This document shows positions 3,638-33,785 of a stretch of 64,000 bases of DNA, in pieces. This DNA comes from an uncultured Spirochaetaceae bacterium (lineage in GTDB: Bacteria; Spirochaetota; Spirochaetia; DSM-27196; SLST01). A model generated the notes under the pieces. The model was not told the origin of the DNA and did not search any database. It saw only the letters and a list, made by a program, of their open reading frames with translations. The position numbers and the translations under genes are program-made. The DNA is taken from NCBI GenBank assembly GCA_964599075.1, contig CAZREG010000003.1:21257-85256 (forward strand), given 5' to 3'. Every line of letters starts with the position of its first letter. Positions within the stretch are counted from its first letter, which is position 1.

Positions 3638-3646
3638 CCCGCTGCA

Positions 3647-3674: not shown

Positions 3675-3697
3675 CTGAGAGAGACGAAGGAGAAACA

Positions 3698-8877: not shown

Positions 8878-9958
8878 GGCCGACCGCTCCTTCGCGCGCC
8901 TGGATGAGCTGTGTCACAGTGGATGAGAAGGTCTCGGTTCGCAGCATAGGTGCGTCGCGAAGCGCCTCAAGCGTGGCCGAACCGGTGAGCACCATTGCGG
9001 TGCGGAGCACCCGGCCGAACCGCTGTGCAAGTGCTACCCCCGCATCCACTCCTCCGCTCTGAACGGCTCTGACAAACGGCAGCGCCATCCCAACGCTGTG
9101 CGCCCCAAGGGCCACGCACTTGGCCAGGTCCATGCCGGTGCGAAGCCCGCCTGAGGCGAGCACTTTCCCACGCAGGTGCGAGAGGGTGGCAAGCAACGGT
9201 CCGGTCGGGGTTCCCCAGTCAGAGAACTCCCGGGCAACAAGCTCATCCTCCCCGTGGAGGCGGTAGCGCTCAACGGTGATCCAGTTCGTCCCGCCGCTTC
9301 CGGCTATGTCCACATAGAAGGCGCCTGCAGCAAGCAGCTGTTCCGCCTCCCATGGCGCAATGCCGCAACCGGTTTCCTTTACCAGCACCGGAACGGGAGA
9401 CTCACTGCAGAGCCTGCGCACCCCCTCGAGTACTCCGCGGAATCCCCGGTCTCCCTCAGGCTGCGCGAGCTCCTGGCCCGGGTTGAGGTGCACGGCAACG
9501 CCGTCTACACCGAGCTCCTGAAGCAGTTCGATGAGCGGCCGATTGTCCGCGTCAATGAGCTGGACTCCCCCAATGTTTGCAAACACCGGCACATCCGGGG
9601 CGTACGTTTTCAGGCGGAAGTGATCAATCACCTCAGGCTTGCGGAACAGGATGCGGATAGAGCCCATGCCCACCGGGATTCCAGTTCTCTGTGCCACCTC
9701 AGCGAGTTGCTTGTTGACCCGGTAACTCTCAGTGCTCCCCCCGGTCATGGAGCTGATGAACAGGGGCATCGAGACGCCGGTCCCGAGAAACTCTGTCTGA
9801 ATGCGGACCTCGCGCTCGTCAATCTCAGGGAGTGCCCGGTGGACGAAGTGAAGACCGGCAAGGCCGGTCGTTCCCCCCTCCACGTCGTAGGTGTCGGGTT
9901 GGGAGCAGATCTCGAGGTGCTGCGCCTTTCGATCGCCTATAGAGTGCCCGTCGCTCAT
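8861..9958 (-). CDS. fni: type 2 isopentenyl-diphosphate delta-isomerase (FMN-dependent)
   Basis: RKAQHLEIC, ISSMTGG, IAGSGGTNW and ASGGLRTGMD motifs of the IDI-2 TIM barrel. Confidence 0.9.
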   Translation of the reverse strand: MSDGHSIGDRKAQHLEICSQPDTYDVEGGTTGLAGLHFVHRALPEIDEREVRIQTEFLGTGVSMPLFISSMTGGSTESYRVNKQLAEVAQRTGIPVGMGSIRILFRKPEVIDHFRLKTYAPDVPVFANIGGVQLIDADNRPLIELLQELGVDGVAVHLNPGQELAQPEGDRGFRGVLEGVRRLCSESPVPVLVKETGCGIAPWEAEQLLAAGAFYVDIAGSGGTNWITVERYRLHGEDELVAREFSDWGTPTGPLLATLSHLRGKVLASGGLRTGMDLAKCVALGAHSVGMALPFVRAVQSGGVDAGVALAQRFGRVLRTAMVLTGSATLEALRDAPMLRTETFSSTVTQLIQAREGAVGRGPLS

Positions 9959-11256
9959 GATCCGGCGAAGAAGGAGTACTGACGATAACCGTCATCACGA
10001 ATACCGGAGAGGTAGAACCGGTGCGACGGAATGGAGGCTGCGGTGAGAAGCGACTCAAGGGTCCCATTCTGGTGTGGTGCCCTGAGCCAGGTCTCGTACT
10101 GTTCAACACTTGCGTCATACTGGTGCGCGTAGATCGCGTCCAGATCCCAGCTCGCGATGACCTGCGGCGCCTGCGGTGCGACCCTGCCACTGATCACTAC
10201 CATGGTGTTTCCTGAACCGTATGAAGCCATCAGGAACGACTTGCCCACAATCTCGTTGCCATACTTCTCATAGCGCTCTCGAAGCAGGAACGCCATTGCA
10301 AGGAACGTGCTTGCGGTATAGAGATTACCAACTTTTCTATTCGGTTCCAGGCTCATCTCAAAACCGGTAGATGCGACGAACTGGTCCAGGTCATCCTGAT
10401 GCATGCCGGTGTGGTGGCTGACCAGACGGTGGAACGCGGTGAGCGCCATGAGCTTGAACGGCACGTGAAAGAAAAACATGTCCGTGCCGCGAATGACCTC
10501 TTCCGGGGCCGCACCACGGCGGTCACAGTGATCCTGAAACGCAACGTCGAGCGCCTCGTTGTAGCACTGCATGGAGTAGGTACCCTTCACCTTTGCGGTT
10601 ACTGAACCGTTTGGACGGAAGAAGTCGTCCACGTCGCGGGAGCAGAAGCCGGGAGTGCTCATATCCAGTTCGAGCAGACGGGGATTCTGCTCTACAAGCA
10701 GGCTGACCGACCCCGCGCCTTGTGTGATCTCTGCGGTCGACGGAGCGTCGTATCGTGCAATGTCAGAGCTCACCACAAGCCCGGACTCGTTTCGCGGTGC
10801 AATAGAGAGCATACCCGCAATGCTCATCATGGCGATAGTGCCGCCGGCGCAGGCGTGCTGTGCCTGAAAGGTGAGAAGCCTCTCCGGTACCTGGAGTCCA
10901 CTTCTCTGGAGCATGCCCTCCAGGTAGGCCGCCATCGGTTTGGACTGATCAACGGTGGTCTCTGTGCCGGCCCCTATATAGCGCAGTCGCTTCGTGGCCT
11001 CGGGGTTGCGGTCCAACAGCTCGTAGGCAGACTGGCCGGCAATCGTGGCACTGTCCTCCCACGGCTCCGGGAATCGAATGGCCTCCTGTCCGGTCTTCTC
11101 CACTGCCCTCCGCAGCCGCCGCTCGAGCGCCGGCTGCTGACGCACCCTGTAGTCAATCAGGGCGTCAAGTGCCATTCGCGGCGACGGCACGAAGATCTGA
11201 AGGTCGCTGATTCCTACCGGCTTCTGTTCCATCACTAGTGCTGCCTTTCTACTCAA
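9955..11256 (-). CDS. mvaS: hydroxymethylglutaryl-CoA synthase
   Basis: Thiolase-like fold with catalytic-Cys context QHACAGGT, FFHVPF and SYGSGN. The start could instead be the internal ATG at 11232 (MEQKPVGISD). Confidence 0.9.
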   Translation of the reverse strand: MSRKAALVMEQKPVGISDLQIFVPSPRMALDALIDYRVRQQPALERRLRRAVEKTGQEAIRFPEPWEDSATIAGQSAYELLDRNPEATKRLRYIGAGTETTVDQSKPMAAYLEGMLQRSGLQVPERLLTFQAQHACAGGTIAMMSIAGMLSIAPRNESGLVVSSDIARYDAPSTAEITQGAGSVSLLVEQNPRLLELDMSTPGFCSRDVDDFFRPNGSVTAKVKGTYSMQCYNEALDVAFQDHCDRRGAAPEEVIRGTDMFFFHVPFKLMALTAFHRLVSHHTGMHQDDLDQFVASTGFEMSLEPNRKVGNLYTASTFLAMAFLLRERYEKYGNEIVGKSFLMASYGSGNTMVVISGRVAPQAPQVIASWDLDAIYAHQYDASVEQYETWLRAPHQNGTLESLLTAASIPSHRFYLSGIRDDGYRQYSFFAGS

Positions 11257-16259: not shown

Positions 16260-17327
16260 ATGGTGGAAACGAGGACGCTCCCTCAGACAGAACGGACGGC
16301 TCCGGTGCTCTCCCCGCAGGATCATGCGCCCGGCAGCCGGCCGCTCGCCCCGCCGGTGAGTATTGCTCCTATGATGGAGAAGACCGATCGGCACTACCGC
16401 TACCTTATGCGCCTGATCACCCGACGGACGTTGCTCTACACGGAGATGATTACCTCAGGAGCAATAGTACATGGGGACCGTGACTACCTGCTGAGCTTTG
16501 AGCCGGTCGAGCATCCAATTGCCTTGCAGCTTGGCGGTGACGATCCGCAGGAGCTGGCGGCAGCGATCCGGATTGCGGAAGGTTACGGCTACGACGAGTA
16601 CAATCTGAACGTTGGATGTCCGAGCGACCGCGTGCAGAACGCCAACTTTGGCGCCTGCCTTATGGCGGATCCCGGACGCGTACGGGAGCTTGTTGCGGCT
16701 ATGCGTGAGGCGACTGCGCAGCCGGTGACCGTGAAGCATCGGATTGGAATAGACGGCCGGGAGAGCTACGCGGAGCTTCGGGAGTTCGTAGAGACGGTTG
16801 AGCAGGCTCGGCCGGCACGCTTCACCGTACATGCGCGTATTGCCGTCCTCACCGGCCTCTCACCCAAGGAAAACCGCACCGTTCCCCCGCTTCGCTACCA
16901 GGACGTATACCGGCTCAAGCAGGAGCTACCTGATCTGCAGGTTGAGATCAATGGCCATATCAAGAGCGTGGAAGAGATCCATCGCCACCTCGCCAGGCTT
17001 GATGCGGTGATGGTGGGCAGGGCTGCGTACGACGAGCCGTGGTTCTTTCATCGCGTAGACCCTGAGTTCTTTGGAGCTGCACCACCTACGCGGAACCGCG
17101 GAGAGGTGATCGACCGCATGATTCCCTACATTGAGCGCTGGGCGGCCAACGGCTGGCCGGAGCGGTCAATTCTTCGGCACATGCTCGGGCTGTTCACCGG
17201 CACTCCGGGGACCCGGCGTTACAAGCAGGCGCTGAGCGGGCCGCTGACCCCAGGTCAGGGTGTGGCGGCACTGAAGGAGGCTGCCGCTGCTATACCCGAC
17301 GCCGTTCTCCGGGAGGGGGCCTGGTGA
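16260..17327 (+). CDS. dusA: tRNA dihydrouridine synthase (DusA-like)
   Basis: IAPMMEKTDRHYRYLMR, LNVGCPS and VKHRIG motifs. Start set to ATG 16260 because track start 16083 lies inside htrA and upstream of the htrA terminator. Confidence 0.85.
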   Translation: MVETRTLPQTERTAPVLSPQDHAPGSRPLAPPVSIAPMMEKTDRHYRYLMRLITRRTLLYTEMITSGAIVHGDRDYLLSFEPVEHPIALQLGGDDPQELAAAIRIAEGYGYDEYNLNVGCPSDRVQNANFGACLMADPGRVRELVAAMREATAQPVTVKHRIGIDGRESYAELREFVETVEQARPARFTVHARIAVLTGLSPKENRTVPPLRYQDVYRLKQELPDLQVEINGHIKSVEEIHRHLARLDAVMVGRAAYDEPWFFHRVDPEFFGAAPPTRNRGEVIDRMIPYIERWAANGWPERSILRHMLGLFTGTPGTRRYKQALSGPLTPGQGVAALKEAAAAIPDAVLREGAW

Positions 17328-18055
17328 GCGATCGGCAGGAGAGCTGTCCGCAGGCGCTTCTCTCACCGCTGTCGCCTCACCGTGTGCTCGACGTGGGCTG
17401 TGGAGACGGAAGCTTCACCCGCACGCTTGCAGCGCTCCTGCGCTCTGCCCACGAGATCCTTGGGATAGATCCAGACAAGGACAGCATCGACGAGGCCCGT
17501 ACGCTTACGGGGGACCCGCGTGTCCGCTATCGCGTTCTCGCCGACCATGAGCTGACCAGGGCAAGCGGTCGGTACAATCTAGTTTCAATCTCCAACACGC
17601 TCCATCACCTGACTCAGCCGGTCCTCTCCATCCGCAGAGTGCAGACGTTTCTCGCGCCCGGAGGCCTTCTGCTGGTGCGGGAAATGGTCAGCGATGGGCT
17701 TACTGAGGCGGAGGTGAACAGCAGGGAGATCCATCACGTAAAGGCGGAGGTCGACCGGGCGTGCGGGAGGGTGCATGATCCGACCTATACGCGGGAGCAG
17801 ATCAGGCGGATTGTCCACGAAGGCGCTGCCGGCTGGAAGATTCTTGCCTCGTGCGAAGAGCACTCCACCCCGGTTCCCGACACCGGTGCGCTCGACTACG
17901 TTCGCGGCTACCTGTCCCATCTCAGCGACCAGCGGTTGATTGAACTCTCCGGGAGACGACTGGATGAAGTTGGAGCCGCTATTGCCCGGGTGGGGATTGC
18001 TCAGCCTCCTCGTCTGCTGGTGCTTCTGGCTGCCCCTGATAAATCGATCTCATGA
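17324..18055 (+). CDS. class I SAM-dependent methyltransferase
   Basis: Motif I VLDVGCGDGSFT and post-I/II pattern LAPGGLLLV. 4-nt overlap with dusA. Confidence 0.75.
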   Translation: MSDRQESCPQALLSPLSPHRVLDVGCGDGSFTRTLAALLRSAHEILGIDPDKDSIDEARTLTGDPRVRYRVLADHELTRASGRYNLVSISNTLHHLTQPVLSIRRVQTFLAPGGLLLVREMVSDGLTEAEVNSREIHHVKAEVDRACGRVHDPTYTREQIRRIVHEGAAGWKILASCEEHSTPVPDTGALDYVRGYLSHLSDQRLIELSGRRLDEVGAAIARVGIAQPPRLLVLLAAPDKSIS

Positions 18056-18554
18056 TCTGTATCAGGCTGAGCACCACAAAGAGCGTGAGCAACATGACGG
18101 CCAATAACTGCAGGCGAAGCGTAACGGCAACTGCTGAAAGGGAGAAAAGTGCCGTGAGAATGCCCACCACCAGCAGATGGAACAGGTGAGTGATCCAGAC
18201 CGCCCGCTGCGCAGCCGGCGAACTTCCAACGGGAAAGCGGCGTACCAGACGGTCCAGGTCAACGGTTGCCACCAGCGTTAGCGCTCCGGTAATGGAGAGC
18301 CAGAGCAAACTCTCACGAAAGCCCCAGACCAGCAGCAAGCCCAGTACCAGATAGAGCGGTGCGACTACCTGGTCACTTCGCGCGGGGAACGTACGCCAGA
18401 GCGTGATGCCCGCCGCCGGTACCATTGCGGCTATCGCTACACCAACCCAGTTGCCGACCACTCCCTGGTGCACTCCGGCTGCTGCAGCCGTCAGGATAAG
18501 AACAAGATCCCGTGCCAGTCGGACTTGGCGAAAGAGAGCGCTCGAACGGCTCAT
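17979..18554 (-). CDS. polytopic membrane protein, unknown function (last gene of MoxR module A)
   Basis: 191 aa with about 5-6 hydrophobic helices and an acidic C-terminal tail. 4-nt overlap with the upstream DUF58 gene. Its 3' end overlaps the methyltransferase by 77 nt. Confidence 0.5.
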   Translation of the reverse strand: MSRSSALFRQVRLARDLVLILTAAAAGVHQGVVGNWVGVAIAAMVPAAGITLWRTFPARSDQVVAPLYLVLGLLLVWGFRESLLWLSITGALTLVATVDLDRLVRRFPVGSSPAAQRAVWITHLFHLLVVGILTALFSLSAVAVTLRLQLLAVMLLTLFVVLSLIQIMRSIYQGQPEAPADEEAEQSPPGQ

Positions 18555-19819
18555 CTACCCCTCCGGCGCCAGACCGCCTGGACCCCGCGGAGGCTTTGTG
18601 CCACCGCGAGCTCGAGTGGCTCGCGCGTGTCCCAGTCTATGACGGCCACCCCAGCATGCCGCAGTCGCCGCATGAGCACTGCGCGTTCGAGCTCCATGAG
18701 GTAGTTGGAGGCTGCAACATCCCTGCTCCCCGCCTGCCGTCTAAAAGGAGTTGGATCCGGACTCACGACGAGCACGGCGTAGCCAAACGCAAGCATTCGT
18801 TCCAGAGCTGCCACATCATCGGTGCCCAACGGTGATACCACCACAATCTGACTTCCCTGCGGGAAGAGGCGTTCCGGGACACTTGCAAGAGAGCGGAACA
18901 CCGCACTCTCCCCCGGGGAACTTCTGGCAATACGGGTGAGGATCTTCTGCCGTTGAATTTTGCCAAAGCCCGGAGCGATCCAGTCTACCATCAGTCCGTG
19001 TGCAAGGTAGCCGACCCGGTTTCCTGCGTCAATGATTGCATCTGCCATGCTCGCCGCGGCAGTGGCCGCCGCTTCAAAGAGGTGAGAGCCGGCAGGGTAG
19101 GCTCCGGTGCGGCAGTCGAGCATGACCGCAACATCCGCCACCCGCTCCTGCTGAAAGAGATTGACGTAGACGCGACCGCTCTTTGCGGTCGCACGCCAGT
19201 TCACGTGTCGCGGGCTCTCAGCCCCGCGGCTCTCCTGAACGTCAAAGAACTCAGTGCCCTCGCCACCGGTGCGGGCCGGGTTCGTCCCGGAATAGACCAG
19301 TGTTCTTCTTGGCGCAATGGGAATCCTTGAGAGCGCCTTGTGGTCTGGAAGCGTCACCAGCTCCTGTTCCGAAGGGATCTCGTAGCGCTGAGACCGGGTC
19401 GGAAGCAGTCCGGCAACCTCAGCGACGACACCTGCAAAGGTGTAACTCCCCCGAATCGCTTCCAGCGTGTAGCTCCACTGTGCCTCCTCTCCCCGGGCAA
19501 GGGTCACACTGGTTGCAGGCTCTCCATCCACCAGCTTCAGGCCAACCGGCACGCGATCCACCAGACGCACCTCATTCAGCGGCTGCCCCCGGTTCTCCAG
19601 ACGCAGACGGATCTGGACTCGCTGGCCCGGCAGTGCCTGCGCCGGGGTAATGGTTCGTTCTACCAGGAGATCCGGCCTGCCGGGCTGCAGGAGAAAGCCG
19701 CCAAGCAGGTAGAGTACCGGTGGAAGCGCAACCAGCACAACCGTCCCGGAGACGGTAACCAGCCCGGTGAAGAGGAAGAGAAAAGTGAGCAGGCACAGGA
19801 CGAACAGCTGCTGCTTCAC
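18551..19819 (-). CDS. DUF58-domain protein with N-terminal double TM
   Basis: 422 aa. N-terminal hydrophobic pair, then DUF58-like core FFDVQESRG..PRHVNWRATAKSGRVYVNLFQQERVADVAVMLD. Located immediately downstream of MoxR. Confidence 0.8.
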   Translation of the reverse strand: MKQQLFVLCLLTFLFLFTGLVTVSGTVVLVALPPVLYLLGGFLLQPGRPDLLVERTITPAQALPGQRVQIRLRLENRGQPLNEVRLVDRVPVGLKLVDGEPATSVTLARGEEAQWSYTLEAIRGSYTFAGVVAEVAGLLPTRSQRYEIPSEQELVTLPDHKALSRIPIAPRRTLVYSGTNPARTGGEGTEFFDVQESRGAESPRHVNWRATAKSGRVYVNLFQQERVADVAVMLDCRTGAYPAGSHLFEAAATAAASMADAIIDAGNRVGYLAHGLMVDWIAPGFGKIQRQKILTRIARSSPGESAVFRSLASVPERLFPQGSQIVVVSPLGTDDVAALERMLAFGYAVLVVSPDPTPFRRQAGSRDVAASNYLMELERAVLMRRLRHAGVAVIDWDTREPLELAVAQSLRGVQAVWRRRGR

Positions 19820-19821
19820 CG

Positions 19822-20775
19822 TCAGATGACCGGGACTCTGGCGTTGGAGATAACCGCGTCCACAACCTCCCGCGCGGCATTTTCCCGCATCCAGAGCTCC
19901 GGAGAGAGTACCAGACGATGCACAAGAGCGGGAGGTGCGGAGTGCTTCACGTCGTCAGGAATCACAAAGCCTCTCCCGTTTATTGCCGCGAGCGCCCGGG
20001 AGAGTTTCATGATTGACAGAGATGCGCGTGGGCTCGCCCCCACGCTGATACCGTTGTGGTGGCGAGTACGCTGCACAAGATCAACAATGTACGCCTCAAT
20101 GTCCTCATGGACCCCGACCTCCTCAACGAGCTCCCTCATGCCCTCGATCTCCTCTGCTGAGGCGACTGAGTGGATGTCAAACGCATCAGCTTTGCGCTCT
20201 CGGCGGTTGCGAAGGATAGCGCGCTCGGTTGCCGCGTCCGGATAGCCCAGGGAGAGTTTGATCAGAAAGCGGTCTAGCTGCGCCTCCGGGAGCGGAAACG
20301 TGCCCTCATACTCAATCGGGTTTTGGGTGGCGAGGACGAAGAACGGCTGCGGGAGCGGATGGGTCTCTCCCTCGAGTGTCACCTGTCCCTCCTGCATAGC
20401 CTCAAGGAGCGCGCTCTGGGTTTTGGGACTCGCTCGGTTGAGCTCATCCGCCAGCAGAACATGGGTGAACACCGGCCCCTTTCGCAGCTCGAACGCCCCG
20501 GTCTCGCGGTTGTATACTGAACCTCCGGTGATGTCAGCGGGGAGCAGGTCCGGAGTAAACTGGATTCGGGTGAATGCCAGGTCCATCGACCGGGCAAGTG
20601 AGCTCGCCAGAAGGGTCTTTCCCAGGCCTGGGAAGTCTTCAAAGAGTACGTGGCCCCCGGCAAGCATGGCTGCAATAACGGTCCGCACGGTCTCTGACTT
20701 GCCGAGCACGGCCGCCTCCACCGCAGCCTGGACACGGGCAGTAAACTGCTCCACTGGTCTGAACTGATCACTCAT
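19822..20775 (-). CDS. MoxR-family AAA+ ATPase (module A)
   Basis: Walker A DFPGLGKT, Walker B LLADELNRASPKTQSALLEAM, LATQNPIEYEGTFPLPEAQLDRF. Confidence 0.9.
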   Translation of the reverse strand: MSDQFRPVEQFTARVQAAVEAAVLGKSETVRTVIAAMLAGGHVLFEDFPGLGKTLLASSLARSMDLAFTRIQFTPDLLPADITGGSVYNRETGAFELRKGPVFTHVLLADELNRASPKTQSALLEAMQEGQVTLEGETHPLPQPFFVLATQNPIEYEGTFPLPEAQLDRFLIKLSLGYPDAATERAILRNRRERKADAFDIHSVASAEEIEGMRELVEEVGVHEDIEAYIVDLVQRTRHHNGISVGASPRASLSIMKLSRALAAINGRGFVIPDDVKHSAPPALVHRLVLSPELWMRENAAREVVDAVISNARVPVI

Positions 20776-21229
20776 ATGGTTCCTCTATCTGTGACTGAAG
20801 TCTTGAAATAATCGTCCGACAGCGGGGCGGCAGCGGTGCTATCCGCTCATCCACCTCCGCCGGCTCGCCACGTCGCTCCCGGGGTGCGTCGCCAAGATGC
20901 TCCTGTATTGCCAGAACAAGCTCAATGTCACTCAACGCTTCCATAAACGAGCGGCATGCAGCGGTGGAGTAGCCGGAGTAGCCGTTCGCCTGGAGGAGGT
21001 AGGAGAGGCACAGCCGCTCAAGCTCGAGCTCCGAGAAGCGATCTGCCCGCGCCATGGCGATGAGGCTGGTGAATCCGCCTCCATGGCTCACCACAGAGCG
21101 ATGGGCGCGGTCCGGGCGCCCGTCACCGCGAAGAAGGCGAACGGTGACGACACCCGCGTAAGCCAGGAGTCCCAGGACAAGTGGATACCAGTAGAGCCCC
21201 TGTGGGAGAGTGGAGACCAGGTCACGCAT
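20768..21229 (-). CDS. small membrane-anchored protein, unknown function
   Basis: 153 aa with one N-terminal TM (YWYPLVLGLLAYAGVVTV). Overlaps both neighbours (8 nt and 1 nt), which supports co-translation. No motif recognised. Confidence 0.5.
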   Translation of the reverse strand: MRDLVSTLPQGLYWYPLVLGLLAYAGVVTVRLLRGDGRPDRAHRSVVSHGGGFTSLIAMARADRFSELELERLCLSYLLQANGYSGYSTAACRSFMEALSDIELVLAIQEHLGDAPRERRGEPAEVDERIAPLPPRCRTIISRLQSQIEEPYE

Positions 21230-22257
21230 CAGTGCCGCAGAGCCTCCGAGATACCGGTGAGGCAGGCAACTGCGTGCGCCTCATCCTCACGCGAGAGCGT
21301 TATCTCTCCGTAGCGCGCCCGCTCAAAGAGCGCGGTGAGGTCATCTGCATGGGTACGGGATACTCCGGCGGCTATGAGCTTTGCAGCGAACTCACGGGGA
21401 GTCACACTCTGTGGCCTGCCGCTGAAGCGGGTCTCTTGATAGACCTCGAGCATCTCCCGGTAGCAGCTCAGCACCACTGAGAGGACCTCCCGGGAGCTTC
21501 CTGCGTCCGCCGCTCCCTGCGCAGCCTGATCGGCCACTGCCGCCGAGGGATCGGCCATCTGCTGTCTCCGTCGTCGGCCCAGCCTCACGTTGGGGCGCAA
21601 AATGATGAGCAACCCCAGTCCCCCAACAATGGAAACGATCCATGCGACAGGATCAGACGCCGACTGACGGGGCACCGAAACATCCTCTGCGAACTCTTCA
21701 GGCAGCTCCTCGGTGGTACCAAGAGCTCCCTGGCCTATGAGAGTTGGATCTCCCTCAACAAGCTCCGGAGGCGGCTGATCACCGGCCGGGGGAAGCCGGC
21801 TGAATAGAACAACTATGAGACCCAGGATAAGAATAAGGAGCGCGGTCACAATGCGATTCTCTTTTCTCGTCTGTGAGACAAAGAAGAGAACTATGGAAAG
21901 GGTCACTGCAAGGGAGACGAAGCGGCCAAGGACTTCGCCACTGAGCCAGACTCGATCAGTTGAGCGGCTTGTCTCGATAGCTTCCTGGATGCGATCGGCC
22001 TGCTCGGTGGACTGGATCCGCAGTCCTGAGGCAAGCTCAAAGCTGTTTAGGCCGGCGGCAAGGAAAACGAGCCCCAGCACGATAGCCGCGCTGAGTGCGA
22101 TCCTTCTTCTTCCCGAGCTTTGCTGCACCCGGCAGAAAGTATACTTTGAACGGGCGAGAGTAAAGATGACTGCGACCGACGCCCTCATAGCCGAGCTCCA
22201 ACAGCAGAGTGAAATAGATGGAACCTGGAGCGTGAGCTCCGACGAGCTCGGTTCCAT
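21229..22257 (-). CDS. DUF4129-like membrane protein (first gene of MoxR module A)
   Basis: Several TM segments and a C-terminal TPREFAAKL...LTALFERARYGEITLS pattern typical of DUF4129. True start is probably internal: ATG 22188, or GTG 22128 giving MQQSSGRRRIALSAAIVLGLVF. Confidence 0.6.
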   Translation of the reverse strand: MEPSSSELTLQVPSISLCCWSSAMRASVAVIFTLARSKYTFCRVQQSSGRRRIALSAAIVLGLVFLAAGLNSFELASGLRIQSTEQADRIQEAIETSRSTDRVWLSGEVLGRFVSLAVTLSIVLFFVSQTRKENRIVTALLILILGLIVVLFSRLPPAGDQPPPELVEGDPTLIGQGALGTTEELPEEFAEDVSVPRQSASDPVAWIVSIVGGLGLLIILRPNVRLGRRRRQQMADPSAAVADQAAQGAADAGSSREVLSVVLSCYREMLEVYQETRFSGRPQSVTPREFAAKLIAAGVSRTHADDLTALFERARYGEITLSREDEAHAVACLTGISEALRH

Positions 22258-23038
22258 CTATGATCCGGTGGACTACTACCGCGCCTCCTACCAGGTCGAG
22301 CAGCTGGGGGTTGACCGGTACGGCCCGCAGAACGCGGGTGAGTTCGCCGAACTGGTCTCCACCGTCGCTCAGCGTGACTACCGTCCCGAGCTCCGCGCCG
22401 CAGGGCTCTACCTGACCCACGAGGATCGCATCGAGCTCACCGGTCGATTCGTCAGATCAGTCCGGGCAGCCATAGTGCTGCACACACCGGAGCCTGAGAC
22501 CTTTCGTGCCATGCTGCGGCAGTTCCGCCGCTACGATGAGGCAGAGCTTATCTACATTGATACGTTCCTCTCTCCGCAGCGAATCATTTCCCGTTGCACC
22601 GCCGAGTATATCGATGTCAGATCGCCCGATTCCGCAGAGGCCACCCTTCGCGCGACCGTTGAGACCTATCTCAAGTTGCTGCTGCAGCGCCACGTGGTTG
22701 AGATCCGCGCGCTTGGCCAGACACTGTTTGACATCCTCCAGACCGTCGCCCGGGCGGAGGGCCTGCTCCGGGGCCCGACGGCAGATGCATCAGACGGAGA
22801 ATCAGAGACCGGGGATGGCGGCCCCAACGCAGCTGATCCGAACGGTGTTCAAGCGATAACCCGCGCGAAGGGTCTGCTCGAGCTTCGGGGCGTCCGCCTG
22901 ACGCGTTCACAGGTACAGAAGGCGTACCGCGCGAAGATGCGGCGCTACCACCCGGATGTGAATCCGTCCGGGCTTGAGATGGCGAAACGCATCAATCACG
23001 CCTACGGAGTGCTGCTTGCCGCGATCGCGGAGTCCTGA
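22166..23038 (+). CDS. C-terminal J-domain protein with uncharacterised N-terminal domain
   Basis: The last ~65 aa read LLELRGVRLTRSQVQKAYRAKMRRYHPDVNPSGLEMAKRINHAYGVLL, a J domain with HPD. Start set to ATG 22166 because the upstream part of track ORF 21815 is antisense to the DUF4129 gene. Confidence 0.7.
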   Translation: MTATDALIAELQQQSEIDGTWSVSSDELGSIYDPVDYYRASYQVEQLGVDRYGPQNAGEFAELVSTVAQRDYRPELRAAGLYLTHEDRIELTGRFVRSVRAAIVLHTPEPETFRAMLRQFRRYDEAELIYIDTFLSPQRIISRCTAEYIDVRSPDSAEATLRATVETYLKLLLQRHVVEIRALGQTLFDILQTVARAEGLLRGPTADASDGESETGDGGPNAADPNGVQAITRAKGLLELRGVRLTRSQVQKAYRAKMRRYHPDVNPSGLEMAKRINHAYGVLLAAIAES

Positions 23039-23053
23039 CGGCCCGACCGGTCG

Positions 23054-25858
23054 CTACTCTTTTCGTTTTCTCGCAATGTAGATCTTGCGCTCGGCGACCG
23101 GGTTGTGTTCGCCGCCCTCGAACCAGGTGCGGCTGCGAGCCTCCCTGGCTTCCTTCCGGTAGTCCTCTGCAACCTGGCGACGGAGCTCCTGATAGCTTGC
23201 GATCTGTTCTTCCTTTGCAGCCGGGCGGGCCTCCCGTTCACTCTGAACAGACGCCTGCTTCAGCCGGGGCCGTCGCTCCCCCGGGCGTCCCCAGCCTGTG
23301 GTGGCCACGGTTCCAACCGGAAGGATGATTTTCTTCAGGAGAAGCTCAATGACAAGGAGCACCACTGCAGCAATCAGAAGCCCCTTCCAGATTCGATCGG
23401 TGAACAGCCTGCCGGAGATCTCTGCATCAAAGAGGCGATCCGCGCCCTCGAGCGGGAGGAGCTCTCCGTTTCCGCGACGCGCAATCTGGTCAAGCAGTTC
23501 AAAATCTGTGCGAAACTGCAGGTACTCCTGCGCGAACGGAACAGAGAGCCCGTAGGTTCGCGGAGCGTTCTCCGGGTCTCCGAACAGTGTGATAAGATAG
23601 CTGCCCTGTTCACTGGTGCGCACCCGTTGTTCGTACCTGCCGGGCGCCGATTGCCTGAGCGTGACCTCATACGGCTCACCGGCGGGTGGCTGGATCAGCG
23701 CCTTCAGTTCGAGCAGGTCACGAAAGGAGCCATCGGTCTCAAAGGCGTCCACAATGACCGTAGTGCCGCCGGCCTCTCGATCAAACCTGACTACGTAGCG
23801 TCCCGCACCAGGGGGGCGTTGGGCCCAACGAACACTCTGCGCCAGAAGCTGCTGATAGCCCTGCCAGTCGAGCCAGTTGATTCCCCATTTTGCCCGCAGA
23901 TCGGATGTGAACGCGACACTGCGACCAAGACCGTACTGCCAGGCGCTCAACACCGGACTCTCCTGCGTGCCGGAAAGCAGCATCTGCGCTCCATCTTTCT
24001 GATACGTCAGCACAAAGCCCTCCAGCGGTGGAATGTCCTGCTGCGAGATCCCTTCCAGAATTGGGCCGCGGGTCACCACGCGTGGGATAAACGTCTCCTC
24101 CACTATCAGGTCCCGACTGACGATGGTTGTCTCTGCGGCAAAGATGCGCGGCACGCTGCGGGAGTCGCTCGCGTGATAGCTTCTGCCGGCCCCCCGCTCG
24201 GCAATGCTGCGCATGAGCTCCCTGTTTGCGCTCGACCCGACTGAGACCGTACTGACGGTAATTGACTCCTCGGCCAGGGCGTCAATAAGCGCATCAAACT
24301 CTCCGTCGTTCGTGAGACCGTCGGAGAGGACCACCAGATGCTTCACTGCTGCCTCGGTCTCTGCAAGGGTTCGCCGAGCCTCCTCCAGGGCACCTTCGAG
24401 TACCGTACCACCGCCGGACTCAAGACCCGCCAGGTCGTCAATTATGGCGGCGCGATCTCCTGCTCGGGTGACCGGGACCGTCCACTCCCAGTCCGCGTCG
24501 AATGCGATAAGCCCCACGGTGTAAAACGGATTCATGATCTCCACCGCAGAGACAACAGCCTCCTTTACCAGGTCAAGCTTGCTCTCTCCCGAGACCTCGA
24601 TCGCACCCATGCTGCCGGACTTATCTATGACGAATACCATGGCGAGGGATGGAATCCTCATAGTGGAGGTGACATCCATATCCACCGGCATCGCGCGCTC
24701 GACCGGCGTCTGGTAGTAGCCGCCGGCGCCAAAGCTCGCATCCCCTCCTATCATGATAAGCCCGCCACCGGTATCACGGACGTAGCGCTCGAGGGCCTCC
24801 ATCCGCGGGAGCGACATGTCGTAGGCCGGCACATTGTCCAGTATGACCGCGTCATAGGTCACCAGGCCGCCAACTGCTGCAGGCATCTGCTCAACGGTGA
24901 CCGAATCAGCTGCTATTCCCTGACCCGCGAGAGCCCGCAGGACCGGCTCTGCGGGCTCTGCTGCCACGTAGAGGATCGCCGGTTCGCCGGAGACCCGTAC
25001 CAGGGCCTCGTACTCGTTGTTGACGGCAACCGGGTCGCCGGGACTTGAGACCGTGACACTGTACCGGTGAACACCCTCCTGCTCAAAGATCCCCTGAAAG
25101 GCAATCACGTTGTCTCCGGGGCCAAGAAGCACCTGATCCTCTCCGTAGTACTCTCCATCGCGAAAGACCGTAACGGTGGCACGTCGCTGGTCGGAGGCGC
25201 CGATCACCACGCCGAACTCATGGGTCTCGTCTACCCGCACCTCCTGCGGGACGTTTACCGATCGAATAAAGACGTCTCCCTCTCCAGGACGCGCCGAGAG
25301 CGGCACGGCGAAGAGCCTGATTCCTGCGTCCGCCGCTATGCGGGCCGCACGTGCCGCGTCTCCGCGCGTCTGCTGGCCATCTGAGAGGAGAACGATCCGC
25401 CGATCGCGGTCATCCTCAAAGAGCGAGACCGCCCGAAGAATTCCTTCGTCAAGGGAGCTCTCGGAGGCAGAGATCACCGACTCACGTGAAAGCTCTCCAA
25501 GCCCACTCTGAAGCCCCCGTTCCACCGCCGCACCGTCGCCAACAAGAACGATCGCCGCTCTGTCCACGTCACTCCCGGACGCAAGCGAGCGCCGCACGAA
25601 CTGCTCGGCCTGGTCTTCACCGGCCGGTCCAAGACTGTCTGAAACATCTACCACAAAGACGACGTCTATGCCGGGGCTCTGAGCAGACCACTGGAGCCCC
25701 GCTGCCGCGAGGGTAAGCAGAAGGAGCGCGGTCAGCCGCAGCGATAGTGGAATCACGCGACGCATGCCGGGGCGGTTGCGTCCCAGGAAGAGTGCCGCGG
25801 CGGCAAGCGGAAGAAGCACCAGGGCGGCAAGCGCGAGGGGGTAGAGAACTCTCATCAC
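23054..25858 (-). CDS. 934-aa membrane protein with N-terminal double TM, two vWA domains and a C-terminal TM
   Basis: N-terminal hydrophobic pair. MIDAS motifs VVDVSDS and VIDKSGS. A central region (AILYVAA...YDAVILDNV...GGGLIMIGG) resembles a class-I glutamine-amidotransferase-like fold. C-terminal TM LLIAAVVLLVIELLL plus a basic tail. Confidence 0.8.
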   Translation of the reverse strand: MMRVLYPLALAALVLLPLAAAALFLGRNRPGMRRVIPLSLRLTALLLLTLAAAGLQWSAQSPGIDVVFVVDVSDSLGPAGEDQAEQFVRRSLASGSDVDRAAIVLVGDGAAVERGLQSGLGELSRESVISASESSLDEGILRAVSLFEDDRDRRIVLLSDGQQTRGDAARAARIAADAGIRLFAVPLSARPGEGDVFIRSVNVPQEVRVDETHEFGVVIGASDQRRATVTVFRDGEYYGEDQVLLGPGDNVIAFQGIFEQEGVHRYSVTVSSPGDPVAVNNEYEALVRVSGEPAILYVAAEPAEPVLRALAGQGIAADSVTVEQMPAAVGGLVTYDAVILDNVPAYDMSLPRMEALERYVRDTGGGLIMIGGDASFGAGGYYQTPVERAMPVDMDVTSTMRIPSLAMVFVIDKSGSMGAIEVSGESKLDLVKEAVVSAVEIMNPFYTVGLIAFDADWEWTVPVTRAGDRAAIIDDLAGLESGGGTVLEGALEEARRTLAETEAAVKHLVVLSDGLTNDGEFDALIDALAEESITVSTVSVGSSANRELMRSIAERGAGRSYHASDSRSVPRIFAAETTIVSRDLIVEETFIPRVVTRGPILEGISQQDIPPLEGFVLTYQKDGAQMLLSGTQESPVLSAWQYGLGRSVAFTSDLRAKWGINWLDWQGYQQLLAQSVRWAQRPPGAGRYVVRFDREAGGTTVIVDAFETDGSFRDLLELKALIQPPAGEPYEVTLRQSAPGRYEQRVRTSEQGSYLITLFGDPENAPRTYGLSVPFAQEYLQFRTDFELLDQIARRGNGELLPLEGADRLFDAEISGRLFTDRIWKGLLIAAVVLLVIELLLKKIILPVGTVATTGWGRPGERRPRLKQASVQSEREARPAAKEEQIASYQELRRQVAEDYRKEAREARSRTWFEGGEHNPVAERKIYIARKRKE

Positions 25859-27675
25859 GTTCTCCGTGCCCAGATGATCCAGTCGCCGGCCAGAACGAGG
25901 AGCGCCGCCAGAGCAAACAGGTGCCAGAGCGGTCGGCCTGCCCGGTCCGTGTCTCCGGATCGCGCTCCCGGCAGCTCGCGCTCCTGCTCCACTGCCGGCG
26001 TCTCCGGGATCAGGCGGCTCTCCTCACGCGAGGCGACGCTCACCGCGAACCTGCTCGTGAATGATTCTCCGAGCACCCGATAGACTCCCACCTGCTCCGT
26101 GTCTGCAAACTCGAACGGGCTTGTCCGGGGCTGGAAGCGTAGTGGCGTCTCGTCCGGCTGGACAACGAGAACCGCTTCTCCCGGCGGGACGTAGAGCGGG
26201 ACAACAGAGCCGCTGGCGACGTACCCGGCTCCGGCCGCCTCACCGGTTGGAGCGAGCCAGCTGATGATGTTGCTCATAAGAATGGGGAAACTCCCTCGCA
26301 GGGCGATGTCGCTGTCACGCAGATCAAAGAGGAATCCCACCACACTCACCGATTCACCGCGCCAGGCGTAGATAAGCGGGATCTCACCCGCGTTCGCCAG
26401 CACCGTCGCCCGGGGATCGAGCGTTCCGGCAATAGCCGCGCTCACCTGGACTTGTGGGAGCTCTGCGTTCTCAGTGATCGGGTGGACAACGGTTGCTACC
26501 GCCCGATCAACCTGCACCGCGCGCTCGGCCTGGAACGGGCCCTCAGGAAGGGCCGTACCAACGGTGATTACGTTGCCCTGGAGCCGAGCCGGCGCCGGAA
26601 CACCGTCGAGCACGATCAGGTCGTACTCACGCGGTCGGGAGACCTCGTTTGTGATGGTGAGCTCGGTCTCCGGGAAGATCGAGAAGAACGACTCAAGGAA
26701 GAGGTTGCCATTGGTCACCAGCTGCACGCGAACCGGCCGCTCACTTCCTGAGGTTGCGAACGCCACGTCGTCAATGGGAAGCGCGTCCTCATTGCCTACG
26801 AGTTCGCCGGAAAAGGTTCCTCGGACTCCCGGGAAGGTGGCGGTAAGGAGGCGCTCCTCAAACGGTTCAAGAGAGAGGGCTTCTCTTGCGTACTCTTCAC
26901 CCTCCACCGTCAGGCGGAGGGAGAGGGTGGCCGCCTGCGGTCCGAAGTTTGAAACACCAATGAGCGCTTCCGTTTCACCTCCGTCGGGCCGTTCCCGTAA
27001 CTCGAATGCGGTTATGCCACGGTTCGCTGCAGTTGTTCCCACCTGCTCCACGATGTAGCGCGTAGACCAACGCTCAAACTCAGTGATCCGGGAAGCACCT
27101 GAGGCATCCGTGATCAGCACAACGTCCGAGTTCCTGCCCCCCTCAAGGCCGGTGATGAGATCGGCCAGGCGGTCCAGATTATTCGTTCCTCCGGTGGGCA
27201 GGAGCGCTGCAAGCGTATCAGAGACTGACTGCATATTCGTCGTAGGGGCAAGGAATACCGATGGGCTCTCGCCGGTTCCTACAAGCGTGACCCGCTCGGA
27301 TCGGCTTGAGGCTGCCAGCGCTGAGGCCCGGCGCACCGCCAGGGAGAACGAGCTCTCACCACGGGTCTGTGCCTGCATGCTCGCGCTTGTGTCGAGCACC
27401 AGGATCAGCTGATCTGCGCCGGTGATACCGGATCGCACTCGTGAGGGCTCACTGAGGGCGAACGCCGCTGCAATGACCGCCAGAAGTTGCAGGAGCAGGT
27501 GAATGTTGCGCAGCAGCCGCGGCCTGATCCGGCGGGACGACTGGTCGGAGATCTCTCTCCAGAGGTAGAGCGAGCTCACCAGCTCACGCCGCCGTTCCTG
27601 CCGAAAGAGATGGAGAAGCACGATCACGGGGACGGCAGTGAGTAGCAGGAAGCCGAGCGGGTTCGCGAAGCTCAT
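25855..27675 (-). CDS. BatA-type N-terminal double-TM domain protein with vWA domain
   Basis: MSFANPLGFLLLTAVPVIVLLHLFRQERRRELVSSLYLW matches the aerotolerance-regulator (BatA) N-terminal domain. MIDAS LVLDTSAS. C-terminal TM LFALAALLVLAGDWIIW. Confidence 0.8.
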   Translation of the reverse strand: MSFANPLGFLLLTAVPVIVLLHLFRQERRRELVSSLYLWREISDQSSRRIRPRLLRNIHLLLQLLAVIAAAFALSEPSRVRSGITGADQLILVLDTSASMQAQTRGESSFSLAVRRASALAASSRSERVTLVGTGESPSVFLAPTTNMQSVSDTLAALLPTGGTNNLDRLADLITGLEGGRNSDVVLITDASGASRITEFERWSTRYIVEQVGTTAANRGITAFELRERPDGGETEALIGVSNFGPQAATLSLRLTVEGEEYAREALSLEPFEERLLTATFPGVRGTFSGELVGNEDALPIDDVAFATSGSERPVRVQLVTNGNLFLESFFSIFPETELTITNEVSRPREYDLIVLDGVPAPARLQGNVITVGTALPEGPFQAERAVQVDRAVATVVHPITENAELPQVQVSAAIAGTLDPRATVLANAGEIPLIYAWRGESVSVVGFLFDLRDSDIALRGSFPILMSNIISWLAPTGEAAGAGYVASGSVVPLYVPPGEAVLVVQPDETPLRFQPRTSPFEFADTEQVGVYRVLGESFTSRFAVSVASREESRLIPETPAVEQERELPGARSGDTDRAGRPLWHLFALAALLVLAGDWIIWARRT

Positions 27676-28550
27676 CGGACGAAGACCCCCCTGCGAAGGT
27701 ACGAGAATACTACGTCCTCGAACGGCACCGCCGTGGATGTGCGCAGGTACTCAACACTGTGGCTGAGACAGAACGTCTCCGCTTCACCAAAGAACTCGCT
27801 CAGTCGCCGTTGATACGCCTGCACGGTCTCAGGCTCCACATTGAGCTCACTCTCTTCCTCGGTCTCCCCGTCGATCAGTCGCAACGGCCCCCGCATCTGA
27901 GGATCAAGCTCCTGCTCATCCATGACCTGGATCAGCATGATATCGAACTTGCGGTAGATGAGCGCACGCAGGCCATCCTGGTAGCCGGCGGGGTCAAGGA
28001 GATCGGTGATGAGGATTGCGAGGCCGGGACGGCGGGTTCGAAGCGAGTAGTCTTTGAGGGCACGGTTGAAGTCGGTCTTGCCGGAAGGACGAAGATTCTC
28101 CACGTAGTCAAAAATGGAGAAGACACGGCTCTTCTGGCGAACCGGCGGGAGGGAGTGCTCAACGCCCTCCGCGAATGCGCTCAGGCCCACCCGATCGAGG
28201 TTGTTGACGGCAAGGTATCCAAGAGCGGCCGCCAGTCGACCGGCGTACCAGAGCTTGCCCGGCGAGCCGAACGACATCGATCTACTGGTGTCTATGAGGA
28301 TGTGAACCGTCAGGTTCTCCTCAGCGGTGAAGATCTTCACGAACAGCCGGTTCAGCCGGCTGTAGATGTTCCAGTCGAGATAGCGAAAGTCATCCCCGGG
28401 CTGGTAGAGACGGTAGTCGGAGAACTCGAGCGAGGCGCCGCGGTCGATAGAGATATTCTCACCTCTGCTTGCGCCTGCGCGGATCCTGCGCGAGAGGAGA
28501 GAGAGCTGTTCGAGTCTGTGCAGGAACGCCTCGTCGAACATCTTTACCAC
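27672..28550 (-). CDS. DUF58-domain protein (module B)
   Basis: EFSDYRLYQPGDDFRYLDWNIYSRLNRLFVKIFTAEENLTVHILIDTSRSM is the canonical DUF58 core. Confidence 0.85.
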   Translation of the reverse strand: MVKMFDEAFLHRLEQLSLLSRRIRAGASRGENISIDRGASLEFSDYRLYQPGDDFRYLDWNIYSRLNRLFVKIFTAEENLTVHILIDTSRSMSFGSPGKLWYAGRLAAALGYLAVNNLDRVGLSAFAEGVEHSLPPVRQKSRVFSIFDYVENLRPSGKTDFNRALKDYSLRTRRPGLAILITDLLDPAGYQDGLRALIYRKFDIMLIQVMDEQELDPQMRGPLRLIDGETEEESELNVEPETVQAYQRRLSEFFGEAETFCLSHSVEYLRTSTAVPFEDVVFSYLRRGVFVR

Positions 28551-29557
28551 TATCGCGCCTCCGGCGTGCTCTCTAACACTCGAGTGACAATGGAGTCCGG
28601 GTCCACTCCTTCCGCTTCGCCCTGGAAACTGAGAATAAGCCGATGGCGGAGCGAGGGTAGCGCCGCCGTTCGAACATCGTCAAAGCTCACGGTGTAGCGA
28701 CCGTCGAGCAGCGCGTACACCTTGGCTGCGAGGATAAGACTCTGGGCGCCACGCGGACTCGAGCCGTAGCGAACAAATCGCTTCACTTCATCCGGAGCCG
28801 TCTCAGTGTCCGGGTGAGTCGCGAGTACCAGCCGAGCGGCGTACTGCTTGACGACCGTAGAGGCCGGCACCGAGCGGATGAGTGCCTGGTACTCGGCAAT
28901 CTGGGATGCGTTGAGCACGGTGCTCAGTGGGCCCAGGTCACTACCGGTGGTTCTGTCTATGATGGTGAGAAGCTCGTCCTCCAGGGGGTATCCTACCTTC
29001 AGCTTGAAAAAGAATCGGTCAAGCTGTGCCTCCGGCAGCGGGTAGGTTCCCTCCATCTCAATGGGGTTCTGGGTGGCAAGGACAATAAAGGGAGGCCCGA
29101 GCGGATAGGTCTGCCCGCCGACCGTTACGTTCTGCTCCTGCATCGCCTCCAGAAGTGCACTCTGTGTCTTGGGCGTCGCCCGGTTGATCTCATCCGCCAG
29201 GACAACCTGTGAGAATACAGGCCCTTTCTGGAAGGTAATAAGCTGATTCCCCTCCTCATCTCTGACAAGCACGTTTGTGCCTACGATATCCGCCGGCATG
29301 AGGTCCGGAGTGAACTGGATCCTCGTGGTGGTGAGATCGAGCACGTCACCGAAGGTCTTGATGAGAAACGTCTTACCCAGACCAGGAACGCCCTCGAGAA
29401 GTGCATGTCCGCGGCACATAAGGCAGACGACCACCTGTTCCATGAGGGTCCGGTGGCCAACAATGTAGCGGCTCATCTCTTCCTGAACCGATCGGATGGT
29501 TGTACCTGCCTCCAGCGCTCGCTCTTCAATCTGCGGGTTCCCGTTACTGTTGCTCAT
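28550..29557 (-). CDS. MoxR-family AAA+ ATPase (module B)
   Basis: Walker A GVPGLGKT, Walker B VLADEINRATPKTQSALLEAM, LATQNPIEMEGTYPLPEAQLDRF. Confidence 0.9.
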   Translation of the reverse strand: MSNSNGNPQIEERALEAGTTIRSVQEEMSRYIVGHRTLMEQVVVCLMCRGHALLEGVPGLGKTFLIKTFGDVLDLTTTRIQFTPDLMPADIVGTNVLVRDEEGNQLITFQKGPVFSQVVLADEINRATPKTQSALLEAMQEQNVTVGGQTYPLGPPFIVLATQNPIEMEGTYPLPEAQLDRFFFKLKVGYPLEDELLTIIDRTTGSDLGPLSTVLNASQIAEYQALIRSVPASTVVKQYAARLVLATHPDTETAPDEVKRFVRYGSSPRGAQSLILAAKVYALLDGRYTVSFDDVRTAALPSLRHRLILSFQGEAEGVDPDSIVTRVLESTPEAR

Positions 29558-33747: not shown

Positions 33748-33785
33748 ACTTTGACCGCAGCGTGCCCGAGTAGTGTCCCGCACGT

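Follow-up and report, generated by a model that had tools for sequence, protein, structure and literature searches.

The stretch of DNA analysed here (the window) comprises 64,000 nucleotides (nt) of contig CAZREG010000003.1 from an uncultured Spirochaetaceae bacterium (assembly GCA_964599075.1). Within it lies a cluster of five consecutive minus-strand genes, here called module A, which encode a DUF4129 protein, a 153-aa protein with a single transmembrane (TM) segment (slot 2), the AAA+ ATPase MoxR-A, the DUF58 protein DUF58-A and a polytopic 191-aa membrane protein (slot 5) (Table 1). An earlier note on this DNA had described these genes as one overlap-coupled module; open reading frame (ORF) listing and translation of the window recovered all five in the places where it had put them, and the overlaps and domains agree with the sequence and with Pfam. 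Read in the sequence, genes 1 and 2 overlap by 1 nt within TGATG (21229), genes 2 and 3 by 8 nt within ATGAGTGA (20768-20775) and genes 4 and 5 by 4 nt within ATGA (18551-18554), while genes 3 and 4 are separated by a gap of 2 nt (19820-19821). The tight overlaps suggest translational coupling and a fixed stoichiometry of the products.

Table 1. Coordinates of the features discussed. Positions are those of the window, except for the last three rows, where they are those of the locus named.
Feature	Position	Strand	Remarks
Gene 1, DUF4129 protein	21229-22257 as ORF; 21229..22188 likelier	(-)	342 aa as ORF
Gene 2 (slot 2), bitopic protein	20768-21229	(-)	153 aa
Gene 3, MoxR-A AAA+ ATPase	19822-20775	(-)	317 aa
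Gene 4, DUF58-A	18551-19819	(-)	422 aa, GTG start
Gene 5 (slot 5), polytopic membrane protein	17979-18554	(-)	191 aa
Divergent intergenic stretch, ~37 bp	22129..22165		between start candidates of gene 1 and the J-domain gene
J-domain protein, HPD motif	22166-23038 (ORF 21815-23038)	(+)	likely start ATG 22166; Pfam DnaJ E=6e-7, C-terminal
Module B, seven-gene Bat-like operon	23054-33822	(-)	upstream of module A, same strand
DUF7269-Ig-DUF58 fusion, Halomontanus megaplasmid (L096)	4104-6140		
Putative DUF7269-Ig-DUF58 fusion, Halomicrobium megaplasmid (L098)	3158-5125		
Putative DUF7269-Ig-DUF58 fusion, Haloarcula megaplasmid (L100)	3173-5125		

The closest public relative of the locus is a contig of GCA_963992505.1 (93-99% aa identity, five proteins); more distant relatives carry the labels Spirochaetota or Spirochaetaceae. 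Against relative L006 (93-99% aa identity in the five proteins), the ratio of non-synonymous to synonymous substitution rates (dN/dS) is 0.115, 0.27, 0.04, 0.08 and 0.37 for genes 1 to 5, and no frameshift or internal stop was found in any of the five genes in this comparison. As judged from these ratios, all five genes are under purifying selection. All five proteins also have homologues at the same position in other genomes. Since dN/dS lies between 0.04 and 0.37 and positionally matching homologues exist elsewhere, the five genes are not chance ORFs; module A is a real, intact five-gene operon.

A species-level genome scan (one genome per species) with a 30-sequence alignment of DUF58-A gave at least 463 confirmed relatives, and the best 80 loci were taken further. 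The alignment was needed, as a scan of the same genome contigs with the single DUF58-A sequence found nothing. These best 80 loci comprise 8 metagenome-assembled genomes (MAGs) of Spirochaetaceae/Spirochaetales, ~70 loci of Chloroflexota (mostly Anaerolineales) and single MAGs labelled Bacteroidota, Adiutricales, Deltaproteobacteria and Syntrophothermus. Loci were annotated with hidden Markov models (HMMs) built from the five module A families. The order DUF4129/slot 2/MoxR/DUF58-A/slot 5 is kept in essentially all of the ~95 loci where the contig reaches far enough; in the gene contexts of DUF58-A homologues with enough flank, the proteins measure ~285-305 (DUF4129), 137-222 (slot 2), ~320 (MoxR), ~425 (DUF58) and 160-200 aa (slot 5). 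It is clear that an operon subtype of wide distribution normally has this five-gene layout. The earlier note had taken the module to be "differently built", with substitutes in the DUF4350 and TgpA slots; this cannot be upheld, the layout with two small proteins being the standard build of the subfamily. Clustering of flanking ORFs over the loci revealed no conserved sixth gene, and only lineage-specific synteny.

Several Chloroflexi loci carry partial duplications of the module. L027 and L046 each have tandem copies of the DUF4129 and slot-2 pair, which suggests that these two genes form a sub-module; two slot-5 paralogues are present in L040, L050, L072, L083 and L094, and two DUF4129 genes in L011, L012, L051 and L094. 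Such duplications hint at sub-complexes.

MoxR-A matches AAA_3 with E=3.5e-64 (215 bits, cut-off 27) and AAA_lid_2 with E=4.2e-21 (74.9 bits, cut-off 22.7), and it matches PDB entry 2R44 with E=7.6e-75. Its Walker A (GLGKT, residue 50), Walker B (VLLADE, 106), ATQNP (149), LDRF (167) and GASPR (246) motifs are all present, so that on its sequence the ATPase is predicted to be intact in its Walker A and B, sensor and Arg-finger elements. It has no TM segment. Identity is 67-80% to spirochaete orthologues and 57-60% to those of Chloroflexi; MoxR proteins from similar plasmid-borne clusters are 51-54% (actinobacterial) and 47-53% (haloarchaeal) identical.

The role of DUF58 was described as unknown in a 2025 review (PMC12067865). 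DUF58-A matches Pfam DUF58 (PF01882) over residues 202-350 (E=1.2e-8, 34.9 bits against a gathering score of 23.4) and gives a weak DUF11/CARDB signal (DUF11 E=0.014). In the AlphaFold2 (AF2) model (predicted local distance difference test score, pLDDT, 83.6) a TM hairpin at residues 2-43 (helices 2-22 and 25-43) is followed by an immunoglobulin (Ig)-like sandwich with strands at 51-156, and by an alpha/beta part from 189 to ~400; the loop at 172-192, which contains the motif GGxGTEF, is modelled with low confidence and yet is highly conserved. Foldseek searches of the PDB matched the sandwich to Ig-like domains (TRAP-beta, CARDB 3idu and CLIPPER 9ifr; E 1e-7 to 1e-4); for the alpha/beta part the matches were vWA domains (8pfd_B, TM-target 0.58; ArnB, 8s05_B; and an integrin; E ~3e-4). 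DUF58-A is thus modelled as an Ig plus vWA-like fold. In the first motif of the metal ion-dependent adhesion site (MIDAS), DxR replaces DxSxS (D235-C-R237-T-G in the window), and all 87 family members keep both D235 and R237. The N-terminal TM pair that had been noted for this protein, and not for the DUF58 of the neighbouring module B, is borne out by hydropathy and by the AF2 helices; DUF58-B reaches a maximum 19-residue hydropathy of 0.96 and has no such pair. The statement that module A has no vWA partner holds in part: a separate vWA gene of the BatA/BatB type is absent, but DUF58-A is itself vWA-like in the model. Because the anchor is a hairpin, the body of DUF58-A should lie on the same side of the membrane as its own N-terminus, and as MoxR has no TM segment the cytoplasm would be the parsimonious location.

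Gene 1 matches Pfam DUF4129 (PF13559) at residues 265-333 of the 342-aa ORF (E=2.2e-10, 40.9 bits against a gathering cut-off of 24.8), and the family consensus reaches 60.8 bits. The 342-aa ORF is probably over-extended. In-frame starts at ATG 22188 (319 aa) or GTG 22128 (299 aa), instead of 22257, fit better, since relatives are called at 284-319 aa and an overlap with the divergent J-domain gene is avoided. Over 69 family members there are four hydrophobic segments, with two acidic loops (72-112 and 156-205) in alternation with the K/R-rich N-terminus, the loop at 127-136 and the stretch after TM4. This pattern points to four TM helices with both termini inside, two acidic loops outside and a cytoplasmic helical DUF4129 domain.

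The slot-2 protein of the window has no match in Pfam, NCBIfam or PADLOC, and a word-index search gave just 3 homologues, at first suggesting an orphan. An exhaustive HMMER search with a spirochaete profile, by comparison, returned 20 representative clusters at E<=1e-10, all of 105-166 aa. Their alignment shows an N-terminal SLPQGxxWYP motif, a single TM helix, and then ELERxCIGLLLQAxGYxGYSVxNCR, EHL and LPxR; in layout, the TM helix is followed by a basic stretch and a five-helix cytoplasmic domain. The AF2 model (pLDDT 79.8) places the TM helix at 14-33 and a small helical bundle at 50-152, with no fold match in the PDB. Family-wide charge counts would put the short N-terminus outside and the helical domain in the cytoplasm. 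The spirochaete family aligns over 144 columns with the slot-2 family of Chloroflexi, whose members are ~200 aa long (hhalign probability 96.2%, E=2.7e-9), the Chloroflexi form carrying one or more additional N-terminal hydrophobic segments; on this alignment the window protein is a spirochaete-type, N-terminally shortened member of one common family. That slot 2 might be a divergent DUF4129- or DUF4381-like domain was also considered, on two signals: spirochaete slot-2 consensus against DUF4381 (E=1.6e-3, below the Pfam cut-off) and slot 2 against DUF4129 proteins (hhalign 39% probability, E=3e-4).

For slot 5 the word-index search likewise gave 1 homologue and at first suggested an orphan; synteny and exhaustive HMMER searches together show that both small proteins are real families. 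Hydropathy and the positive-inside pattern over 85 family members indicate about six TM helices, paired into three hairpins, and the K/R-rich loops would face inside. Among these is the conserved loop (A/V)xDLDRxxxR between TM4 and TM5; a loop of the DLDRxxxR type is common to spirochaetes and Chloroflexi. R59, D99 and R106 are invariant in the alignment, and the spirochaete and Chloroflexi families match each other with 96% probability (hhalign, E=2.6e-9).

The earlier note pointed to DUF4129/DUF4350/MoxR/DUF58/TgpA clusters in other phyla, and it might be supposed that module A is a decayed cluster of this kind whose 153-aa and 191-aa ORFs are DUF4350 and TgpA fragments. A single weak match of the 191-aa protein to TgpA_N (PF11992; E=0.15, 11.4 bits against a cut-off of 30) would fit, but it was seen in only 1 of 9 family members and is absent from the family consensus. 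DUF4350 (PF14258) gave no match at E<=1 in 8 slot-2 members and 2 consensus sequences, and no transglutaminase domain was found by Pfam in the 8 slot-2 members, the 9 slot-5 members or the consensus sequences, so the observation that the last gene has a TM bundle without a transglutaminase domain stands. The shapes also differ. In DUF4350 proteins a large extracytoplasmic flavodoxin-like domain comes after a signal peptide (PMC5898192), whereas slot 2 has a single TM helix and ~120 all-helical residues. Sizes, TM layout and motifs of the small proteins are kept across phyla, their dN/dS values are 0.27 and 0.37, and ~95 loci share the layout. Neither protein is a DUF4350 or TgpA fragment or looks like a remnant, and decay is effectively refuted as an explanation.

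The relationships of the two small proteins appear instead to lead to haloarchaeal families. A slot-2 consensus dominated by Chloroflexi sequences matches DUF7269 (PF23933) with 18.4 bits (E=2.3e-3; gathering score 29.1), and hhalign of the Chloroflexi family against haloarchaeal DUF7269 gives 33% probability (E=4.4e-4); the spirochaete family gives no signal in the same comparison, and its link to DUF7269 is made through the spirochaete-Chloroflexi homology (96%) and the conserved gene position. The slot-5 consensus matches DUF7519 (PF24363) with 21.8 bits (E=1.9e-4; gathering score 27) over profile positions 4-152 of 155. One family member (L014) reaches 22.2 bits, and the window protein alone gives no match. 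Against 7 haloarchaeal DUF7519 proteins, hhalign gives 70% probability (E=4e-5) with the AWDL motif aligned, and slot 5 and DUF7519 share the position after DUF58. These profile comparisons are suggestive, and it is probable that slots 2 and 5 belong to the DUF7269 and DUF7519 families.

A tblastn search of plasmids with DUF58-A gave 41 records and, among the matches listed, all were haloarchaeal megaplasmids; the gene 1 DUF4129 protein gave one weak match in such a search. DUF58-A aligns with haloarchaeal DUF58 proteins over ~85% of its length at 27-33% identity. Eight haloarchaeal loci (L096-L103) have the order DUF4129-DUF7269-DUF58-DUF7519 with 4-nt overlaps, their hypothetical proteins being assigned by Pfam to DUF7269 (E=8.7e-34) and DUF7519 (E=1e-27 to 1e-45). 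In 5 of the 8 loci a MoxR gene lies nearby, just downstream or on the opposite strand. DUF7269 and DUF58 form a single polypeptide in three of the eight: in Halomontanus this was confirmed by Pfam (678 aa; DUF7269, DUF11 and DUF58), while in L098 and L100 it is suggested by a gene length of ~650 aa. The haloarchaeal clusters thus have the same five components as module A, four of them in an unchanged internal order, together with overlapping genes, a DUF58 of Ig plus DUF58 build and a MoxR 47-53% identical; they differ in that MoxR is at the end, on the opposite strand or not local, rather than between slot 2 and DUF58. That the bacterial and haloarchaeal clusters correspond as wholes is well supported.

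The same gene order as in module A is found on the Mycobacterium marinum plasmid pMMRN (L104, record positions 85690-89934) and on a plasmid of Streptomyces sp. NBC_01708 (L105). Sizes are alike (DUF4129 325-353, first small protein 161-178, MoxR 323-335, DUF58 419-448 and second small protein 152-197 aa) and MoxR is 52% identical to MoxR-A; unlike module A, these copies are plasmid-borne. Plasmid pMMRN is mobilizable, and there the module adjoins P450, UbiB-kinase and TetR genes and two tyrosine recombinases. It is well supported that the module A type is common to Spirochaetaceae, Chloroflexota and actinobacterial plasmids and occurs rearranged in haloarchaea. A sister record of pMMRN annotates its MoxR as moxR3_2. 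The M. tuberculosis genes Rv3166c-Rv3162c (moxR3 = Rv3164c) probably have the same layout, with Rv3162c as a possible slot-5 gene. In M. tuberculosis, Rv3160c-Rv3162c has been described as a lipid-response operon (PMC13464648). Literature searches covering DUF7269, DUF7519, DUF4381 and moxR3 yielded neither a functional study nor a description of such an operon.

Upstream of module A, on the same strand, module B encodes a 665-aa DUF4350-like protein (E=1.6e-4; the only one in the window), unannotated TM proteins of 255 and 506 aa, MoxR-B, DUF58-B, a BatA-vWA protein and a 934-aa protein (23054-25858) with vWA and GATase1-like matches. The two modules had been placed 3 kb apart; they are indeed close, though the distance is ~0.8-0.9 kb if the 934-aa gene is counted in module B and ~3.6 kb otherwise. 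Wherever the flank of a spirochaete relative is long enough, modules A and B adjoin with the J-domain gene between them, and module A itself lacks a vWA protein of the BatA/BatB type, from which it could be argued that module A is a lineage-specific duplicate of module B that works with it, sharing clients, vWA proteins and the J-domain protein. This seems distinctly improbable. MoxR-A and MoxR-B are just 44% identical, against 57-60% for MoxR-A and its Chloroflexi orthologues, and DUF58-A and DUF58-B align over just 107 residues at 24% identity, DUF58-B having an intact MIDAS (DTSRS). Because distant orthologues are closer than paralogues 1-10 kb away, the modules must be old, distinct subfamilies with no recent duplication, which goes further than the earlier observation that the two MoxR/DUF58 sets are non-identical. 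Furthermore, the adjacency is seen in spirochaete relatives only, the Chloroflexi, actinobacterial and haloarchaeal loci having no module B nearby. In the spirochaete relative L007 (GCA_964537725.1, 1265-3820) a PAS-GGDEF-EAL gene separates module B from the J-domain gene, and so the adjacency is not strictly fixed.

How might the five proteins work together? In MoxR/vWA pairs such as RavA-ViaA, CbbQ-CbbO and NorQ-NorD, an AAA+ hexamer is docked by a vWA adaptor and a client is remodelled. It seems fairly probable that module A encodes a complex of this general kind, a membrane-anchored MoxR/vWA-like remodelling complex on the cytoplasmic face that has no catalytic domain; that module A represents a conserved five-gene operon is well supported. 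By analogy with these pairs, DUF58-A would be the adaptor that docks MoxR-A at the inner membrane face. The sizeable soluble parts, namely the MoxR hexamer, the Ig and vWA-like body of DUF58, the DUF4129 domain and the slot-2 helical domain, would all be cytoplasmic and anchored through 2 + 4 + 1 + 6 TM helices, with the TM bundle of the DUF4129 protein and slot 5 forming a membrane platform. Slot 2 would associate with DUF58, since the two are one polypeptide in some haloarchaea; the joint duplication of DUF4129 and slot 2 in L027 and L046 suggests that these two act as a pair. ATP hydrolysis could then bring about the chaperone-like remodelling, assembly, extraction or gating of a membrane client or of the complex's own membrane subunits. 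As the module has no enzyme or output domain, its output would have to be conformational. Related predictions have been made for neighbouring systems: the MoxR-vWA-TGL (transglutaminase-like) operon as a membrane-proximal machine, degradative in its TGL-containing relatives (PMC3495828), and archaeal clusters containing DUF4350 as a secretion or membrane-remodelling complex (PMC5898192).

Several points weigh against this remodelling complex. The cytoplasmic location of the DUF58-A body rests on the TM hairpin and a weak charge bias. Ig/CARDB-like domains are usually extracellular, and Makarova et al. predicted that related archaeal Ig-vWA proteins are secreted (PMC5898192). The analogy with ViaA and CbbO may fail, because the client-gripping MIDAS is replaced by DxR in DUF58-A. 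The matches that link the small proteins to DUF7269 (18.4 bits; hhalign 33%) and DUF7519 (21.8 bits; hhalign 70%) fall short of the Pfam thresholds, the actinobacterial small proteins were not detected by the module A family HMMs or by Pfam, and no client could be identified from the gene neighbourhood.

Alternatively, module A may serve degradation by working with an unlinked protease, which we regard as unlikely. DUF4129 also occurs at the C-terminus of transglutaminase-core (TgpA-type) proteins, which would tie module A to those systems. In support of a degradative role, Zhang and Aravind proposed that MoxR unfolds substrates which the vWA protein recruits for the TGL peptidase (PMC3495828). 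That degradation model is, however, itself a proposal, the MIDAS motif of DUF58-A is degenerate, and no peptidase or TGL domain is present in module A or conserved in its flanks across the ~95 loci.

It could also be that module A is a signalling or threat-sensing MoxR-vWA module, of the beta-propeller ternary conflict or Esr/PFNA type, with the membrane proteins as sensors. MoxR-vWA pairs do transduce signals in the kinase-linked Esr pathway (bioRxiv 10.64898/2026.09.08.750141), the DUF4129 protein has two variable acidic loops that are predicted to be extracytoplasmic, and one copy of the module adjoins recombinase genes on a mobilizable mycobacterial plasmid. Nevertheless we think this quite improbable: there is no kinase, FHA, beta-propeller, effector or transglutaminase gene, and the flanking genes are of a housekeeping nature (tRNA-modification enzymes, HtrA and a two-component system). 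With bpMoxR below threshold for MoxR-A (20.4 against 27 bits), no propeller or effector gene, and 0 of the 5 module A proteins matched by the PADLOC defence-system models, a defence system was rejected.

If the remodelling complex is taken further, a bolder proposal can be made, which is possible but at present doubtful: the five proteins would constitute an ancient, previously undescribed membrane AAA+ machine of Bacteria and Haloarchaea, the transglutaminase-independent core of all MoxR-DUF58-TgpA-type systems, in which a MIDAS-less DUF58 (with its invariant Arg and GGxGTEF loop) couples MoxR to a platform of DUF4129, DUF7269-like and DUF7519-like proteins and so remodels or inserts membrane components. 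If this were true, the mycobacterial moxR3-type operon would be the same machine.

The divergent J-domain gene, situated next to gene 1 between the two modules, has the same place in all spirochaete relatives examined. The gap between the two genes in relatives is 37-45 bp (L001, L007) or 19 bp (L009), and the corresponding stretch of the window is presumed to be their shared promoter region. The N-terminal ~200 aa of the J-domain protein have no assigned function; the protein could link either MoxR module to DnaK. Downstream, and convergent with module A, are genes for a SAM (S-adenosylmethionine) methyltransferase, Dus, HtrA, a two-component system and MnmA. The 3' end of gene 5 overlaps the methyltransferase gene (17324-18055, +) by 77 nt (17979-18055), which leaves no space for a terminator between the two; comparable overlaps of 92 nt (L006) and 29 nt (L001) occur in relatives. 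A scan for sigma-70-type promoters over 17700-22700 found no promoter-like site, promoter and terminator scans of the locus gave nothing above shuffled expectation, Rfam gave no credible match over 17000-23500, and NCBIfam added nothing specific for the module A proteins. Elsewhere in the window (8861-11256, -) are genes for 3-hydroxy-3-methylglutaryl-CoA (HMG-CoA) synthase and a flavin mononucleotide (FMN)-dependent dehydrogenase-like protein, which an HMG-CoA reductase gene adjoins in L006; this suggests a mevalonate-pathway cluster in a spirochaete-like genome.

MoxR-DUF58 pairs are among the commonest uncharacterised ATPase modules of prokaryotes. Within them the present analysis defines a discrete five-component subtype in Spirochaetota, Chloroflexota, Actinomycetota and Haloarchaea, with a fixed order, a predicted topology and a natural DUF7269-DUF58 fusion, and the module of the window is an ordinary member of its own subfamily, neither a hybrid nor a decayed cluster. 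Two orphan families of small membrane proteins thereby gain a functional context. A concrete complex can now be tested in tractable hosts, among them Haloferax, Mycobacterium smegmatis or M. marinum, and Streptomyces, which makes a common "unknown" ATPase system approachable.

Besides the haloarchaeal and actinobacterial clusters, two known systems are closest to module A. With the Bat-like aerotolerance operons (MoxR-DUF58-BatA-BatB), represented by module B and by Borrelia BB0170-BB0176 (PMC5700661), it shares a MoxR and DUF58 core and membrane-anchored partners. Unlike them, it has neither BatA/BatB vWA proteins nor a DUF4350-like protein, and its DUF58 has a TM hairpin, an Ig-like domain and DxR where that of module B has DTSRS. 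With the three-gene MoxR-DUF58(vWA)-TgpA/YebA operons, such as yeaC-yeaD-yebA of Bacillus subtilis and TgpA of Pseudomonas aeruginosa (PMC3495828, PMC3507681), it shares an AAA_3-type MoxR, a DUF58 protein and one or more polytopic partners. Here the differences are that module A lacks a transglutaminase/TGL domain and has no significant TgpA_N match, that DUF4129 is carried on a 4-TM protein of its own, that two extra small membrane proteins are present, and that DUF58 bears a TM hairpin and an Ig-like domain. Module A as a transglutaminase-less relative of the TgpA/YebA operons is a well supported assignment.

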